NCBI GenBank assembly: GCA_037189525.1
Contig: JBBCJC010000002.1
Coordinates: 160,001 to 224,000, forward strand
Origin: Gemmatimonadales bacterium
GTDB taxonomy: Bacteria > Gemmatimonadota > Gemmatimonadetes > Gemmatimonadales > GWC2-71-9
Direction of reading: 5' to 3'
Length of the DNA stretch: 64,000 bases
The translations under genes and the position numbers were made by a program. Under the pieces are notes generated by a model that saw only the letters and a program-made list of their open reading frames with translations, ran no database searches and had not been told where the DNA came from. Of the stretch, positions 47,554 to 55,797 are shown one piece after another; the stretch's first letter is position 1; each line of letters begins with the position of its first letter.

Positions 47554-50500
47554 ATGAAGCTCAGCCCTGACGGCAATCTCGTCTTCTCACCGAGCGACTT
47601 GATCGTCTTTCTCGAGGGAGACTTTGCCTCATGGATGGACCGGGCCCGTCTCGAGGCGGGACGGGGTGTCGCCATCCCGGCGCACATTGCGGCGGCCGCC
47701 GCGGATGAGCCATCGGACGAGACCGCGCTCTTTGCGCGCCTGGGCGATGCCCACGAACGCGCGGTGCTCGAACGGCTGCATGGCGTCGATGGCCCGATCG
47801 TCACGATCGATCGCGACAACCAGTCTCGCGAACGAACGCTCGAAGCCCTGACCCTGGCCCAAGCAACCATCTTTCAGGGTCACCTTGCCGACCCGCCATT
47901 CGAAGGCTACGCCGACTTCCTGCGCCGCGTTACCCATGAGAACGGGACCGCATTCGAGCCGTGGGACAGCAAGCTGGCACGATCGACCCGGCCGTATTTC
48001 CTGGTTCAGCTCTGTTGCTACGCAGCCATGCTGGCCCGTGTCCAGGGTCACTTGCCGGCACGGCTCGGCGTGATTCTGGGCACCGGTGATGAGCTGACCT
48101 ATCCGACGACGGATTTCATCCACTACTATCGCCACCTGCGGCGGCGTTTTCTCGCCTTTCAGGATCGCTTCGACCCGTCGGTCATGCCCGACCCCGCCCT
48201 CGAGCGTGGCTTGGGCAGCTGGAGTGATTTCGCCCGGCAGGAGTTGATCCGGCGTGACGACCTTCGCCTCCTGGCCGGGGTGACCAGAAGCCAGATTGCC
48301 CGGCTCCGTGAATGCGGTATCCAAACCCTGGCCGCGCTGGCCACCGGCACGCGTCCGCCGGACCTCCGCATCAAGCAGGGCATCTTCGACCGTTTACAGG
48401 AACAGGCCCGTCTCCAGATCACCTCGCGGGGCCAGGAACGGCCTGTTTGGATCGTGGTGCCGCCGCCGGAGGAACGGCCCGGTCGCGGTCTGGGCGGCTT
48501 GCCACCGGCCACGCCCTATGACGTCTATCTCGATTTCGAGGGCTACCCGCTGCTCGGCAAGGACGGGTTGGAATACTTGGTAGGCGCCGTCACGATCGAG
48601 AGCGGATCGCCCGAGTTTCACGATTGGTGGGCTCACGATTCGCTGAGCGAGCGGCGCGCCTTCGAAGCGGTGGTCGACTGGCTCTGGTCGCGCTGGCGAG
48701 CCCAACCGGCGCTGCACATCTATCACTACGCGCCCTACGAAAAGACCGCGCTCCGGCGGCTGGCCGCCAAGTACGCAACCCGCGAAGACGAGCTCGACGA
48801 CCTGCTGCGCAACGAGGTGCTGGTCGATCTCTACCCCATCGTTCGGCAAGGTATGGTGGTGGGGACGGAGAGTTACTCGCTCAAGGACATCGAGCGGCTC
48901 TATCGAGGACGTCGCGAAGGCACGGTCACGGCCGCCGGCGGATCGATGGTGGCCTATCAGAACTGGATCGACAGCGGCGAGCCCGGCGATTGGCGCGCAT
49001 CACCCAGGCTGGCCGCGATTCGGGATTACAATCGCGACGACTGCGTCTCCACCTGGGAACTCGCCGAGTGGCTCCGCAAGAGGCAGACCGAGGCTGGCAT
49101 CCCGTGGGCGCCGATCAAAGCCGCCGACGCCCAGAAGCCGCCGAGCGACAAGGAGCTCGAACGCCGGGCCAGGGTAGAGCCGCTGGAGCAGGAACTGCTG
49201 CGCCGCGCCGAGACTGCTACCGACCCGGAGTCCGGGCGGGTGACCGTCTTGCTTGCTCACCTGCTGCAATTTCATCGGCGTGAAGCGCGGCCGGTCTGGT
49301 GGGAGCTGTTCGATCGCGCTGCCAGGCCGGACGACGAGCTCGTCCATGACCATCGCTGCCTGGTCGGCATGGAGCGGACCTCGCGCCCGCCCTTTTCGAT
49401 CAAGCGTTCATTCGGATACGAGTATCGGTTCGATACCGAACAGGATTTTCATATCCATGCCGGCGACACCGGCCGCCTGCCACACGACCTCGACATCAAA
49501 GCATCGATCGAGAGCATCGACCCCGACGCCGGACTCGTCGTCATCAAGACGACCGCCGGGAAGTTGCCCAAGACCGCGACATTCATCGAGCATCGGTTCT
49601 TTTCGGCGGATGCGATTGCCGACAGCATCTTTCGTTTCGTGACCCGCTGGTCTCAGCGTACGCTCTCCGACCGCAATGCCGTGATCGACGTACTGCATCG
49701 GCGCGCGCCGCGACGAAAGTCCACTGCATCCGGCCCGCTCATTCCCGGCGACACGACCGATTTCCTCGCCGACCTGATTCGCGTCGTGGCCGACCTCGAC
49801 GACAGCTCGCTCTGCATCCAGGGTCCGCCCGGTACCGGGAAGACCTGGAGCACCGCCCAGGTCATCCTGGCGCTGGTCAACGCCGGCCATCGCGTCGGTG
49901 TCGCGTCCAACAGTCACTCGGCCATCCGGAATTTGATGGTGACGGTGGCTGAGCACGCCGCACGTCGCGGGACACCGGTTCGTCTGGTCAAAGCCGGTCA
50001 GGATGACGACGGGCTCGAGGCGCTCGCGGCTCACGGAATCACGCAGATCGAGTCGGGGGATGCCGCCGGCGCCTGCGAAGCTGGCCCGCTCGTGCTGGGT
50101 GGGACAGCGTGGGTCTTCTCGCGGGAGGATATGCAGGAACCGACGCCGCGACTCGACTATCTCTTCGTCGATGAAGCCGGGCAGGTCTCACTCGCCAATC
50201 TGGTCGGTATGGGCAGCGCCGCGCGCAATCTCGTCCTGATCGGCGACCAGATGCAGTTGGCGCAACCGGTCAAAGGCAGCCATCCCGACGAGAGTGGCGA
50301 CTCCTGCCTGGAGTACGCGCTACAGGGTCACGCCACCGTTCCACCCGATCGCGGCGTCTTCCTGCCGACGACCTGGCGGATGCATCCGGACATCTGCGAG
50401 TTCGTTTCGGCGGCGGTCTACGAGCACCGCCTGCACGGCGCACCGATTACCCGAACCCATCGGCTGGAGCTGTCGAAGCCGGGGCCGATCGATCGCGGGA

Positions 50501-50985
50501 CCGGTATCGTACTGATTGATGTCGACCACGACGGGAACACTCAGGACAGCGAAGAGGAAGTCGCAGCCATCGGCGCGATCGTCGACCAGCTCGAGGGTGG
50601 AACCGTCGAAATCGAGGGGACCCAACGGCCGTTCGATCGGACCCGTGATATCCTGATCGTGGCTCCGTACAACCTGCAGGTCCATCGCCTGCGTCAGGCC
50701 CTTCCGGATCTCCAGATCGGGACGGTCGACAAATTCCAGGGGCTCGAAGCGCCGGTGGTCATCGTCTCGATGTGCGCCTCTTCGCTGGAGGATGCCCCGC
50801 GCGGCGCTGCATTCCTGCTCAACCCGAATCGCCTCAATGTCGCGATTTCGCGGGCGCAGTGCCTTGCCGTGGTGGTCGGATCGCCCGACCTGACGATGAC
50901 GCGCTGCACCAGCGTCGCGGAGATGAAGCTGGTCAACCTCTACTGTCACCTCCGCGACTACGCGACTGGAGCGTTAGCGGAGTAA
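47554..50985 (+). CDS. TM0106 family RecB-like nuclease / RNase H-like / SF1 helicase
   Basis: [58 protein letters not shown] and RLNVAISRA. Confidence 0.93.
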
Positions 50986-51822
50986 CTCCTCCAGTTTGAC
51001 GGAGGCATCGGTCTTCTCGTCACGGTATTTGACGATGACCGGCGCGTAGAGCGCAATGCCCAGCGCAGCACCCACTCCATACTTGACCGGCCGCGACCCG
51101 GGTACCACGACGGCGCCAGCCGGGATCTCGAGCGGACGATCGCCGTCTCGGCGCAGCAAGCGGTCGTGCACCAGATCGACCACGACGGTCCCGCCCGTCA
51201 GGATCGTCCCTGGCGCCAACACCGCACGCTCCCGAACGATGGTACCCTCGTAGATGCCGGTGTTACCACCCACCAGGACATCGTCTTCGACTACCACTGG
51301 CAACGCCCCGGCCGGCTCCAAGACGCCCCCGATTTGCGCACCTGCCGAAATGTGGACCCGCTTCCCGATCTGGGCGCACGATCCGACCAGCGCATGCGAA
51401 TCGATCATGGTACCATCGTCGACGTAGGCGCCGGCATTGACGTACATCGGCGGCATGCAGACCACGCCCCGGCCGAGATAGGCGCCTTCGCGCACCGAAG
51501 AACCACCCGGTACGACGCGAACGCCATCGTCTGCTCCGAAGCGGCGGATGCCGTAGGTGTCCTTATCCGCGAACGGGAGGTTGCCCGGGCCTGCAAGCTC
51601 GACCACGACACCCAGTCGGAAGCCAAGCAGGATCCCGCTCTTGACCCAGGTATTGGCCTGCCAGGTACCGTCTGCCGCGCGTGTTGCTGCGCGCACCGTC
51701 CCCGCCTGCAGCGCCAGTTTGAGATCGCCGAATGCCTGCCGCGCCTCCGCTTCGGCGCCTGCCGGCACGCCCGCAGCAAAGCGCTCGATCCGCTCCTGCA
51801 ACCCTGCTCCACCTGCCGTCAT
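50974..51822 (-). CDS. dapD: Tetrahydrodipicolinate N-succinyltransferase
   Basis: [17 protein letters not shown], hexapeptide repeats and GGVLEP. Confidence 0.93.
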
Positions 51823-52709
51823 GCCACTGCCTCCACCGCGAAATCGCGAAGTACATTCTCGAGCACAGCCCGAGAGCTTGCCGATACCGGCACCAATGGT
51901 AATCGCAGCACGTTGGAAATCTTACCCATCATGGCCAGCGCACACTTGGCCGGCGCGGGATTGGTTTCGATGAAGTTGGCGTCGATCAGCGGCAGGAGAC
52001 GATAGTGCAACTCGCGGGCTTCGACCAACCGGCCATCGAGGGACAACCGGGCCAAGCGTGCCATCAGCCCGGGTACCTCGTTCGAGATGACGGAGATGAT
52101 CCCGTCGCCGCCGATCGCAATCAGCGGGAGTGTCATGCCGTCATCCCCAGACAGCACCAGGAACCCGTCGGGACGATCCTTGATGATTCGCATCATCTGA
52201 TTGAGGTCGCCGCTGGCTTCCTTGACAGCCACGATCCGTGGATGCGCGGCCAGTTCGAGAATGGTGGCCGGCGCCATGTTGACCGCGGTCCGGCCCGGCA
52301 CGTTGTAGAGGATCACCGGCCGAGTGCTGGCCTCCGCCACTGCCTCGAAATGCCGGAGCATTCCGGTTTGGGTCGGCTTGTTGTAGTACGGCGCCGCGCT
52401 CAGAATGCCGTCGACGCCAGCTTCGCACATGGCGCGCGTCTCGGCCACGGCCCGCGCCGTATCGTTGCTGGTGGCTCCTGCCACCACGGGGACCCGTCCG
52501 CGGGCGGCTTCGACCACGGTACGCGCCACGGTGAGCCGTTCGTCGTCGCTCAGCGTCTGGGCTTCACCGGTCGAGCCACACGCCACCAGGAAGTCGATCC
52601 CATCGGCGATCTGCCAGTCGACCAATCGGCGGAGTGCCGCCAGGTCGAGGGAACCGTCCGACTCGAATGGGGTTACCAGCGCGGTACCACAACCGCGAAA
52701 TGCGCTCAT
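51819..52709 (-). CDS. dapA: 4-hydroxy-tetrahydrodipicolinate synthase
   Basis: [31 protein letters not shown] and ETNP.P.K. Confidence 0.97.
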
Positions 52710-53404
52710 CGTTCGTCTCCAAAGAGGACTTGTTCGAATCGATAGATTCCGATATGACCCGGCAGCCACTCGGCCGCCGTGACCGCGCCGACCGCAAACA
52801 CGGCGCGATTGCGCGCACTGTGGGTCAGCGTGATGGTTTCGTGTTCGCCGTCGATTTCCAACCGATGCAGCCCGGGAATCGAGCCCAACCGTTCTGACGT
52901 GATCGGATACGGACGTCCGGGATCGCCGGCCCGAGCCGCGGCCTGCAGCGCAAGCCCGGTCCCCGACGGCGCATCCAGCTTGTGGCGATGATGCTGCTCG
53001 AAGATCGCCGCATCGAACTCGGGCCGGCCGGCCAGCGCCCGCCCCAGTTCGCGCGCGGCCCGGAACATCAGATGCGCACCGATCGAGAAGTTCGCGGCGT
53101 GGAGGAGCGCACCGCGCCGCGCCGCGACCAGCGCTTCCAGCGCAGGCAACTCTTCGCGCCACCCGGTGGTCCCGGTCACCACCGGCACGCCCAACTCGAT
53201 CAACCGATGCAGGTTGGCCACCGCGGCCGCCGGCTGGGTGAACTCGACCGCCACCTCGGCGCCGTGCAGCGTCGCCGCCGACAGGCCTGCTCCGTCGACA
53301 TTGTCGGCCTCGCCGATCCGCGCCACCACCTGATGCCCTCGACGCTCGGCTTCGGCAATGACGGCCTGTCCCATGCGCCCGAGACCGATCACGGCAATCC
53401 TCAT
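52706..53404 (-). CDS. dapB: 4-hydroxy-tetrahydrodipicolinate reductase
   Basis: GLGRMG, GTTGW, NFSIG and EQHHRHKLDAPSGT. Confidence 0.95.
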   Translation of the reverse strand: MRIAVIGLGRMGQAVIAEAERRGHQVVARIGEADNVDGAGLSAATLHGAEVAVEFTQPAAAVANLHRLIELGVPVVTGTTGWREELPALEALVAARRGALLHAANFSIGAHLMFRAARELGRALAGRPEFDAAIFEQHHRHKLDAPSGTGLALQAAARAGDPGRPYPITSERLGSIPGLHRLEIDGEHETITLTHSARNRAVFAVGAVTAAEWLPGHIGIYRFEQVLFGDER

Positions 53405-54762
53405 GCGGCCACCTCCGGAAAGAACTCGCGATGGAGCAGTTGAACCGCGCCGACGGCCTGATCCTCGCGAATCACGAAGGTCATGTTGATGGCCGAGGCA
53501 CCCTGCGAGATGACTTCGATGTTGATGGGATTGACAGCGGAGAAGATGCGGCCGGCGATACCGGGTTCGGTCCGAAGCCCGATACCTACGACGGCCACGA
53601 TGGCTCGGCCCCCAGCCGTGGTCACGTCGCCTAACGTCCCGAGATCGCGACAGAGCATCTCGAGGCGGGCCGGATCGTCGATGGTGAGCGAGACGCTGAC
53701 CTCGCTCGTCGCCACCACGTCGACGGAGATCCCGTGCCGTTCGACCACTTCGAACAGTTTGCGCAGGAATCCGACGGCATCGAGCATCCCGGTCGCACGC
53801 ACGTTGATCAGCGTGATCCCCTTCTTCCAGGCAATCGACCGGACCGGCGACCCCTCGATCGGCTGAACCGAGGCCCCGGCCAGGATGGTCGTTCCCGGCC
53901 GCCCCGGGGCAAAGGAGTTGAGGATGACACAGGGAATGCGAGCGTGGATCAGCGGAGCGTACGTGGAGGGGTGAAGCACCTTGGCGCCGAAGGTCGCGAG
54001 CTCGGCAGCTTCGTGGTGGCTCGCGACCTCGATCAATCTGGCGTCCGGTACCACGCGCGGGTCGGCGGTCATCAGTCCGTCGACATCGGTCCAGATCTCG
54101 ACCCGTTCAGCACCGAGCGCGGCGCCCAGCAGCGACGCCGAGTAATCCGAGCCCCCTCGACCCAACGTCGTCGGGCGGCTATCGGCGGTCGCGCCAAGAA
54201 ATCCCTGGGTGACGGGAACGATCCCGGCATCGAGGATCGGGCCGAACACCGCGGGGGCCGCCTGATCCAGTACCTGCCGGTCGACGACGGCCCGCCCGAA
54301 ACGCGCATCGGTACGCATCACCGTCCGGACATCGACCCACCGGGAGGCAATATCGGCCACCGCCGTCAGCGCCGCCGCCACCAGATGGGAACTCCAGAGC
54401 TCGCCGAACGAGACGACCGCATCGCGCACCGCCTCGGGTGCTCCACCGTCCCGCAGGCTGTCGAGCCGCGCCTCGATCAGAGCGACATCGGCCGCGAGAA
54501 CCTCGTCGAGCGCGCCGGAGACGCCCAGCTCTTCCGCCGTTGCCCGATGGCGAGCCACGATCTCGCCCAACCGCACACGGGCGCCATCCCTATCGCCGGC
54601 CTCGGTCTGATCGACCAGGCCAAGCAGGGCATTGGTCACCCCCGACATCGCCGACACGACGACCAGTGGGCGGCTGGTCAGTCTCCCTTTGACGATCCCG
54701 GCGAGTCGTTCGATCGCTGCGCAATCACCCACGGACGTCCCGCCGAACTTACAAACGATCAT
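53401..54762 (-). CDS. lysC: Aspartate kinase
   Basis: KFGGTSV, VVSAM, TLGRGGSDY, IWTDVDG and GAKVLHP; two ACT domains. Confidence 0.96.
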   Translation of the reverse strand: MIVCKFGGTSVGDCAAIERLAGIVKGRLTSRPLVVVSAMSGVTNALLGLVDQTEAGDRDGARVRLGEIVARHRATAEELGVSGALDEVLAADVALIEARLDSLRDGGAPEAVRDAVVSFGELWSSHLVAAALTAVADIASRWVDVRTVMRTDARFGRAVVDRQVLDQAAPAVFGPILDAGIVPVTQGFLGATADSRPTTLGRGGSDYSASLLGAALGAERVEIWTDVDGLMTADPRVVPDARLIEVASHHEAAELATFGAKVLHPSTYAPLIHARIPCVILNSFAPGRPGTTILAGASVQPIEGSPVRSIAWKKGITLINVRATGMLDAVGFLRKLFEVVERHGISVDVVATSEVSVSLTIDDPARLEMLCRDLGTLGDVTTAGGRAIVAVVGIGLRTEPGIAGRIFSAVNPINIEVISQGASAINMTFVIREDQAVGAVQLLHREFFPEVAA

Positions 54763-54799
54763 AAAACAAAAAACCCGCCACACGATATCGTGCGGCGGG
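54763..54799 (-). terminator. Attenuator (intrinsic terminator) immediately before the lysC start
   Basis: Minus strand CCCGCCGCACGATATCGTGTGGCGGG followed by TTTTTTGTTTT and then ATG. Confidence 0.88.
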
Positions 54800-54825
54800 G
54801 CTCCGGTGGTCAGAACTACGTTTGA

Positions 54826-54939
54826 CTACGCCGAATGCCCTCCGCACGGGCTGCACTTGAGCCCGCGCTTCTTCGCCCCGGCCTTAGTGGCCGACGTGAG
54901 AGCAGCGATGCGGTGCGCCTTAGCGGAAAGCGAGGTCAT
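54826..54939 (-). CDS. Putative lysine-sensing leader peptide MTSLSAKAHRIAALTSATKAGAKKRGLKCSPCGGHSA (37 aa)
   Basis: Five AAG Lys codons including a tandem KK; the 3' part is complementary to the terminator's 5' arm. Too short for the ORF track. Confidence 0.8.
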   Translation of the reverse strand: MTSLSAKAHRIAALTSATKAGAKKRGLKCSPCGGHSA

Positions 54940-54945
54940 GTTTGA

Positions 54946-54974
54946 AGCTTAGTGGGCTGATTTCTACAACACAA
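54946..54974 (-). promoter_or_regulatory. Putative sigma70 promoter giving a leaderless transcript starting at the leader ATG
   Basis: Minus strand TTGTGT-17 nt-TAAGCT-6 nt-ATG(54939). Confidence 0.65.
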
Positions 54975-55251: not shown

Positions 55252-55797
55252 ATGCGATACCTTTCCGTGGTGGGGACCCTCGTTCTCCTCGCTGGCGCGC
55301 CTCCTCTCGCGCTTCACGCCCAGGAGCGCGGTCACGCCGCGTCTGCTGCGCTCCGGGTCGGGGGCGCGCCGGATAACGGCGGCACAGCCTCACTCGGCTT
55401 CGAGTTCCGCAGCCCGGCTGCCGGGCGAATCGCGCTCAGTGCAGGCGTCGACCGCTGGTTTCGGGCGGTTGGTTGCGACGCCGCCATCGGGGCACCAAGT
55501 GATGGTGGCGCGTGGGCTGCGGAAGCCGGTCTGATACTCCATTTGGCCCCAGCGACACGGGCTATGATTCCCTACGCTGCAGCGAGGCTCGGTCGCCTGT
55601 TTCCAGACAACTCCGCTGAGGAGCCTGGGTGGAATCCAAGCCTCAGCGTCGGCTTCGCTGCTCGCGCACAGTCGACCGTGGGATTCGTCTTTGAGGTCAA
55701 GTACAGTGCACTGATCGGTGAGGAGCCTATACCCTCGAAATATGCAGATCGGAGCGATCGGGTTTTCGTTCAGGGGGGAGTCAGGCTTTCCTTCTAG
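55252..55797 (+). CDS. Small outer-membrane beta-barrel-like protein
   Basis: Signal peptide, alternating beta-strands and C-terminal GGVRLSF (terminal Phe). Confidence 0.7.
   Translation: MRYLSVVGTLVLLAGAPPLALHAQERGHAASAALRVGGAPDNGGTASLGFEFRSPAAGRIALSAGVDRWFRAVGCDAAIGAPSDGGAWAAEAGLILHLAPATRAMIPYAAARLGRLFPDNSAEEPGWNPSLSVGFAARAQSTVGFVFEVKYSALIGEEPIPSKYADRSDRVFVQGGVRLSF

Follow-up and report, generated by a model that had tools for sequence, protein, structure and literature searches.

A probable lysine-codon attenuator, predicted to be leaderless, in front of lysC-dapB-dapA-dapD in a Gemmatimonadales bacterium, and the uncatalogued leader family to which it belongs

In textbook accounts, lysC and the diaminopimelate (DAP) pathway are controlled by the lysine riboswitch. 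Attenuation through lysine codons is, to our knowledge, otherwise known only from the aminoadipate cluster of Thermus thermophilus, where a leader peptide with Lys codons reportedly attenuates lysine biosynthesis. Here we describe a short open reading frame (ORF) before the lysC-dapB-dapA-dapD operon of a Gemmatimonadales bacterium, on the minus strand of the window (the whole 64,000-nucleotide stretch that was analysed), which is very probably a ribosome-mediated transcription attenuator that senses lysine and whose mRNA is predicted to be leaderless. The mechanism class is an old one, varied here in that lysine would be sensed, for the DAP pathway, by way of an ORF predicted to be leaderless. 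The leader is set apart from the Thermus cluster, by description only, in that the genes here encode aspartate kinase and the DAP pathway rather than the aminoadipate pathway, and in another phylum.

Classical leader-peptide attenuation is described in PMC2659441, according to which Shewanella lysC carries a lysine riboswitch instead. The E. coli attenuators of the trp, thr, his, leu and phe type are likewise built from a short ORF rich in product codons, an antiterminator over the ORF end, an intrinsic terminator and a protector helix, the last being predicted for the present leader; unlike them, the leader described here would sense lysine, is predicted to be leaderless and matches no Rfam leader family. 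Leaderless examples come from PMC10117765, in which trpL (rnTrpL) of Sinorhizobium meliloti is a leaderless attenuator small ORF (sORF) and SEP5, with six Thr and three Lys codons, is suggested to be the leader peptide of an aspartate-pathway gene. There, trpL senses Trp, and SEP5 is a Thr-dominated putative regulator restricted to Sinorhizobium, whereas the present leader is Lys rich. Mycobacterial poly-Cys leaderless sORFs are first cistrons on which stalling at product codons controls the operon, according to bioRxiv 10.1101/834739; they sense Cys and free a ribosome-binding site, whereas here an intrinsic terminator is combined with Lys codons. The available part of PMC10783764 is silent on leaderless genes in Gemmatimonadota. 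Outside subscription journals and supplementary tables of predicted attenuators, our literature search returned no description of this leader family and no attenuator paper for Gemmatimonadota, a phylum to whose DAP pathway the present leader would add attenuation by Lys codons; a retuning of codons with operon content was not found in print either.

The lysine riboswitch (RF00168) and the T-box (RF00230) would do the same job, lysine-responsive control 5' of lysC, and the leader is a member of neither. As the first-pass annotation of this DNA had expected, the two models gave no match at the locus or anywhere in the 98% complete genome, with control genomes positive. At gathering scores, Rfam returned only tRNAs in eight related loci. 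Four sub-threshold Rfam matches near the locus, all far below gathering scores, were rejected as chance.

At the locus itself we recovered the arrangement outlined in that annotation, with some extensions. A predicted -35-like hexamer TTGTGT (54969..54974; this and all following leader and operon features are on the minus strand) and a predicted -10-like hexamer TAAGCT (54946..54951) are 17 nt apart, and the latter stands, as annotated, 6 nt before the upstream ORF (uORF) ATG at 54939. TTGTG is invariant in four of four aligned orthologous leaders, and promoter geometry places the ATG at about +1 in 49 of the 55 family leaders introduced below. The uORF (54826..54939) has the 37 codons and the five Lys codons first read there (7, 19, 23, 24 and 28), all AAG. 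The leader thus has 5 Lys in 36 codons, and at least 5 Lys occur in 11 of the 6,536 ATG-started ORFs of 30 to 45 amino acids in the genome; its peptide had no Pfam match at E ≤ 1. The GC-rich terminator was likewise found, as a hairpin running from 54799 to 54774 (segments 3 and 4, 54774..54799; 11 pairs, 9 of them G-C, -22.5 kcal/mol) and followed by an 11-nt U-rich tract (54763..54773) that adjoins the lysC ATG at 54762. Pairing of codons 31 to 35 with the terminator 5' arm, also proposed at first pass, proved to be part of a longer helix: segment 2 (54831..54848, codons 31 to 36) pairs with 54806-54789 over 16 bp, the extension joining 54835-54831 to 54806-54802. This antiterminator helix (-29.7 kcal/mol including the enclosed helix) begins 10 nt after the first base of K28 and consumes the terminator 5' arm. 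Near the start of the ORF, segment 1 (54923..54931), a predicted protector strand, pairs in the minimum-energy fold with 54845-54837 if the leader is untranslated.

A strict sigma-70 scan called 0 promoters at the locus, TTGTGT/TAAGCT included, and a lone terminator-like site there is at shuffle level (0.9 expected). The case therefore rests on the combination of elements and on the relatives. No Shine-Dalgarno (SD) pairing was found before the uORF (-0.7 kcal/mol), and its mRNA is predicted from the sequence to be leaderless, starting at or beside the AUG. Genome-wide, ATG peaked 5 to 8 nt after the promoter pattern, with 35 long-ORF sites at 6 to 8 nt versus 0 to 3 at most other spacings and 8 at 11 nt; because of this enrichment, leaderless starts look common in the genome. 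Two sequencing runs from one study, guessed to be RNA, each yielded one short contig (54689-54911 and 54743-54885) spanning the leader and the first 20 to 74 nt of lysC; their RNA nature is unproven, and we did not count them as evidence.

The operon downstream consists of lysC (53401..54762; lysine-sensitive aspartokinase III type, NF006570 over cut-off), dapB (52706..53404; TIGR00036 at 118.8 bits, just below the cut-off of 122), dapA (51819..52709; profile assignment) and dapD (50974..51822; NF008808 over cut-off), and the stops and starts of neighbouring genes overlap. lysA and dapF are elsewhere in the genome. In most relatives the operon is headed by an M20 (dapE-like) gene, of which this genome has only distant homologues (best 27-31% identity). 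Convergent with the operon and overlapping the dapD end is a TM0106-family RecB-like nuclease fused to a helicase (47554-50985, plus strand); a divergent ORF of 181 amino acids (55252-55797, plus strand) without an NCBIfam match resembles, by eye, a secreted or outer-membrane protein.

Next, we folded the leader with a ribosome placed along it, taking the nascent RNA to end at the hairpin loop and the ribosome to cover 13 nt from the A-site codon. In these nascent folds the antiterminator formed with P of 0.84 for a stall at K23 or K24, 0.57 at K28 and 0.23 at C29, and with P of 0 from H35 on, stop codon included, although the zero at the stop is partly built into the model. Across the family, antiterminator P reached at least 0.5 in 56 of 56 nascent folds with the ribosome on one of the last four Lys/Thr/Met codons. 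With the full hairpin transcribed, the terminator won at equilibrium for every ribosome position (P about 0.9-1.0; at K24, -38.9 versus -32.7 kcal/mol), and an equilibrium switch was rejected, as folding with the ribosome present showed no switching. The antiterminator must therefore act as a co-transcriptional kinetic trap. Kinetic trapping is usual for attenuators. The idea, already in the first-pass annotation, that a stall at K23-K24 allows read-through thus stands with K28 added, but only as a kinetic effect. For the full leader without a ribosome, the minimum-energy fold had codons 3 to 6 on segment 2 and a formed terminator; at minimum energy the 8 Lys-type leaders shown had the ORF folded on itself and the terminator in place, and the predicted segment 1:2 duplex reached -15 to -18 kcal/mol in the four orthologues. 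At the nascent stage without a ribosome the antiterminator was favoured (P of 0.84), so the default state of an untranslated leader is uncertain.

From these elements we propose the following sequence of events. Transcription would start at or beside the first base of the uORF ATG (54939), giving a 5' AUG for a ribosome to load on. With Lys-tRNA in short supply, this ribosome would stall at K23/K24 and partly at K28, leaving codons 31 to 36 free to pair with 54806-54789 as this emerges and before the 3' arm is made; polymerase would then read into lysC, and a weak SD in the 3' arm would also be exposed. When lysine is plentiful, the ribosome would cover codons 31 to 37, the hairpin would form and transcription would end in the U-tract. 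In a leader that is not translated, segment 1 may hold segment 2, giving termination by default in the folding model. Some basal read-through is probably needed, since the DAP pathway also supplies a cell-wall precursor.

We then compared the leader with its orthologues. In two congeners (L002 and L003; lysC 90% identical), promoter spacing, ORF length, frame and terminator are all kept, and DNA farther upstream is visibly unrelated. A more distant leader (L409) precedes an M20-peptidase-dapB-dapA-dapD operon (the M20 gene is labelled dapE-like by us) and has the same ORF length and frame; its first 18 codons are unrelated, while the block with K23, K24 and K28 and the tail are kept. A further leader (L463) is near-identical to L409 and cut off. 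The terminator is conserved among the aligned orthologues. The Lys-rich uORF is thus conserved in relatives, but its Lys codons are so only in part: K23, K24 and K28 are present in four of four aligned orthologues, whereas K7 is present in two (lost in L003 and L409) and K19 in three (lost in L409). This pattern indicates that codons 23, 24 and 28 (K23-K24-x-x-x-K28, 54856..54873) are likely the control codons, as judged from the alignment. A special role for AAG was considered and rejected, 130 of the 132 Lys codons of the leader family being AAG. A scan of genome contigs for the pattern KKRGxK gave 61 matches, of which 2 were real (L409 and L463); another pattern scan gave at least 119 matches, of which 12 were inspected and 4 were leaders before an M20 gene.

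Leaders of this type form an uncatalogued family. We collected 55 distinct leaders (duplicates removed) before aspartate-pathway operons in one Gemmatimonadota family; these relatives are kin and so not independent. The dapB tally (101/301) takes in three genomes flagged unpublished, on which none of the other claims rests; upstream DNA was taken for 74 of the 101 dapB places, 67 of them intact upstream. A short ORF with the same terminator type preceded 25 of these 67 intact dap operons (21 called automatically, 4 by eye), a lower bound because the true first gene of lysC-M20 loci may lie further up. The promoter geometry (TTG, 17-18 nt, TAnnnT, 5-10 nt, ATG) recurred in 49 of 55 leaders, with 6 to 8 nt between -10 and ATG in 41 of the 49; the -10 part belonged to the search rule, the TTG spacing did not. 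Ten of ten intact loci in two further families of the order lacked a leader, their first gene looking directly leaderless, and none was found before lysC in Chlorobiaceae loci above 43.5% lysC identity, more distant loci having been screened more loosely. Two other leaders or leader-like ORFs deserve mention. In L350:140-227 (reverse strand, G015:C15), a degenerate leader before M20-dapB-dapA-dapD has the promoter and ATG directly before the terminator, and its 18-codon ORF without Lys reads through the hairpin, so that it may be constitutive. In L018 (G024), a promoter-like TTGACA-TAGCCT and a 32-codon ORF lie about 275-175 nt before the matched aspartate kinase, with no Lys/Thr enrichment and no terminator called.

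Antiterminator complementarity, proposed at first from this one locus, is also conserved: in every one of the 55 leaders the tail of the ORF can pair with the 5' arm of the terminator (-18 to -37 kcal/mol; L354 was left out of this set, its label not having located the leader). In 54 of 55 leaders this tail pairing exceeded the average of synonymous recodings in strength; p < 0.05 was reached in 11 of 55, and the leader in the window gave p of 0.17. RNAalifold, run on 32 leaders, recovered the antiterminator core GCGG/CCGC pairs unprompted. When 32 of 56 leaders were aligned on an 11-pair extended helix, 72% of cells were paired versus 33-56% for slid partners, and two-sided changes occurred at 6 of the 11 antiterminator pairs; 18 of 500 and 14 of 500 shuffles scored as high. 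The covariation is modest and no greater than relatedness can produce.

To ask how leader content relates to operon content, we set operon classes by gene content and not by leader. Most relatives have (M20)-asd-lysC-dapB-dapA-dapD or rearrangements thereof. Among residues before the antiterminator, asd-less lysC-dap operons (n = 9) had Lys 0.18, Thr 0.05 and Met 0.005; operons with asd and dap (n = 34) had Lys 0.10, Thr 0.20 and Met 0.07; and asd-lysC operons without dap (n = 12) had Lys 0.09, Thr 0.30 and Met 0.12. Lys equalled or exceeded Thr plus Met in 9/9, 2/34 and 0/12 leaders of these classes, respectively, that is, in 9/9 asd-less versus 2/46 asd-containing operons, and internal Met was present in 1/9 versus 44/46. 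Only Lys was enriched in the asd-less class (0.18 versus about 0.02 in 4,052 background residues). On a quick lysC tree (35 leader-bearing rows plus 7 outgroup rows), from which the 20 of 55 leaders without full-length lysC were left off, the asd-less class needed 3 changes, 2 of them forced by well supported branches. Four related congeners (G001, G008, G009 and G011) have asd-lysC leaders with 0, 0, 1 and 0 Lys, and no dapA over cut-off was found in these genomes (84-96% complete), in which lysA is present; being one clade at that completeness, they make one suggestive case. Outside the genus, asd has no leader of this type in the five genomes whose dap operons lack asd.

A scan of the genome that was blind to amino-acid content returned 120 promoter-plus-ATG sites, 37 with a short ORF, and a terminator stood behind 4 of the 37, where about 0.3 were expected (rate of 0.007 after random stop triplets). 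All four units match their downstream genes: Lys with lysC-dap, Thr-Met with asd-lysC2, Cys with cysK and Trp with trp. The Thr-Met sister leader (Thr8-Met3-Lys2; G000:C1:804115, plus strand, L396:3116-3281) precedes asd and a second lysC (lysC2, on C1, 56% identical), divergent from thrC. The Trp unit is a predicted leaderless 24-codon ORF with four Trp and a terminator (G000:C3:116483, minus strand, L395) before DAHP synthase-trpE-G-D-CF-B-A, and the Cys unit is a predicted leaderless 28-codon ORF with two Cys-Cys pairs (G000:C3:809907, plus strand, L394), with a hairpin and weak U-tract before cysK. Four Cys codons mark a further short ORF, also equipped with a promoter and a terminator, at G000:C5:485152 (minus strand). 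The pairing of a Lys leader with an asd-lysC leader seen in this genome recurs in G021, G005 and G019.

The aspartate kinases differ along the same line. The residues that align with E. coli M318 and G323, sites that presumably take part in lysine feedback, are retained in the window lysC and in 9 of 9 LysC of asd-less operons; in LysC of asd-only operons, Met is missing in 4 of the 4 readable (of 8), and Glu replaces Gly in two. Both sites are among the AKIII mutation sites listed in PMC3195717.

We weighed four other readings against lysine-dependent termination. Lysine might be sensed in the same way with a mainly translational output, the hairpin hiding the lysC ribosome-binding site and termination being minor, much as the mycobacterial poly-Cys leaders work. 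The hairpin does lie close to the lysC start, at a distance of 11 nt (7 nt in L002 and L003), the only SD-like stretch before lysC is in the terminator 3' arm, and the U-tract begins at most 16 nt from the start codon in 25 of 57 automatically called leaders (duplicates included). That SD is weak, however (-5.8 kcal/mol, versus -7 to -15 kcal/mol for dapA/D/B), and every hairpin of the family is followed by a U-tract, including those with the start codon 22-56 nt away, even if the U-tract was part of the search rule. We consider this reading unlikely, although the SD in the 3' arm means that a translational layer may be added to termination. A leader that responds to general translation stress or to several amino acids would account for the 3 Thr and 8 Ala codons that also stand before the antiterminator and for the folding model, in which any stall before codon 27 frees segment 2, but Thr codons number 1 to 3 in close orthologues and 0 in L409, L050, L331, L347 and L378, and the enrichment of Lys alone makes general sensing highly improbable.

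The chance that the ORF encodes a small protein in its own right and ends in a terminator of its own, with lysC transcribed from elsewhere or by fixed leak-through, appears just as slim. The peptide is 81-92% identical, by count, among three close species and has a CxxC-like tail; against this, the stretch from the terminator to the ATG has neither space nor motif for a lysC promoter, L409 does not keep the Cys residues, Pfam offers no match, and the peptides of the family share only a Lys/Thr/Met bias and the antiterminator-encoding tail. Least probable of all is an RNA switch that binds a ligand or a protein, such as a new kind of lysine riboswitch, with an incidental ORF: the ORF region does fold as a long stable stem (-52.5 kcal/mol), but it has no Rfam match, the 5' two thirds of the leader differ in sequence even among orthologues, which nevertheless keep frame and Lys codons, and the amino-acid content varies with the operon.

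Returning to the lysine attenuator, we lean towards a broader reading of the family, held with less assurance than that of the single locus: one leaderless attenuator module would have been retuned by codon swaps whenever the aspartate-pathway operon split, with the enzymes mirroring the split, and would replace the lysine riboswitch for DAP genes while also reading methionine. It would carry Lys, Thr and Met codons before joint asd-lysC-dap operons, Lys alone before asd-less dap operons (arising two to three times independently), and Thr and Met before asd-lysC, with almost no Lys where dapA was not found. In this genome, the Lys leader would serve the kinase with intact lysine-site residues, and the Thr/Met leader the paralogue with changed residues.

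If so, the more than 55 leaders form a natural series in which sensing specificity shifts with operon content. Such a series would make testable how a multivalent attenuator gives rise to single-amino-acid ones and how leaderless initiation is coupled to termination. It would also open to test how shut-off by lysine is tolerated in a cell whose wall requires DAP.
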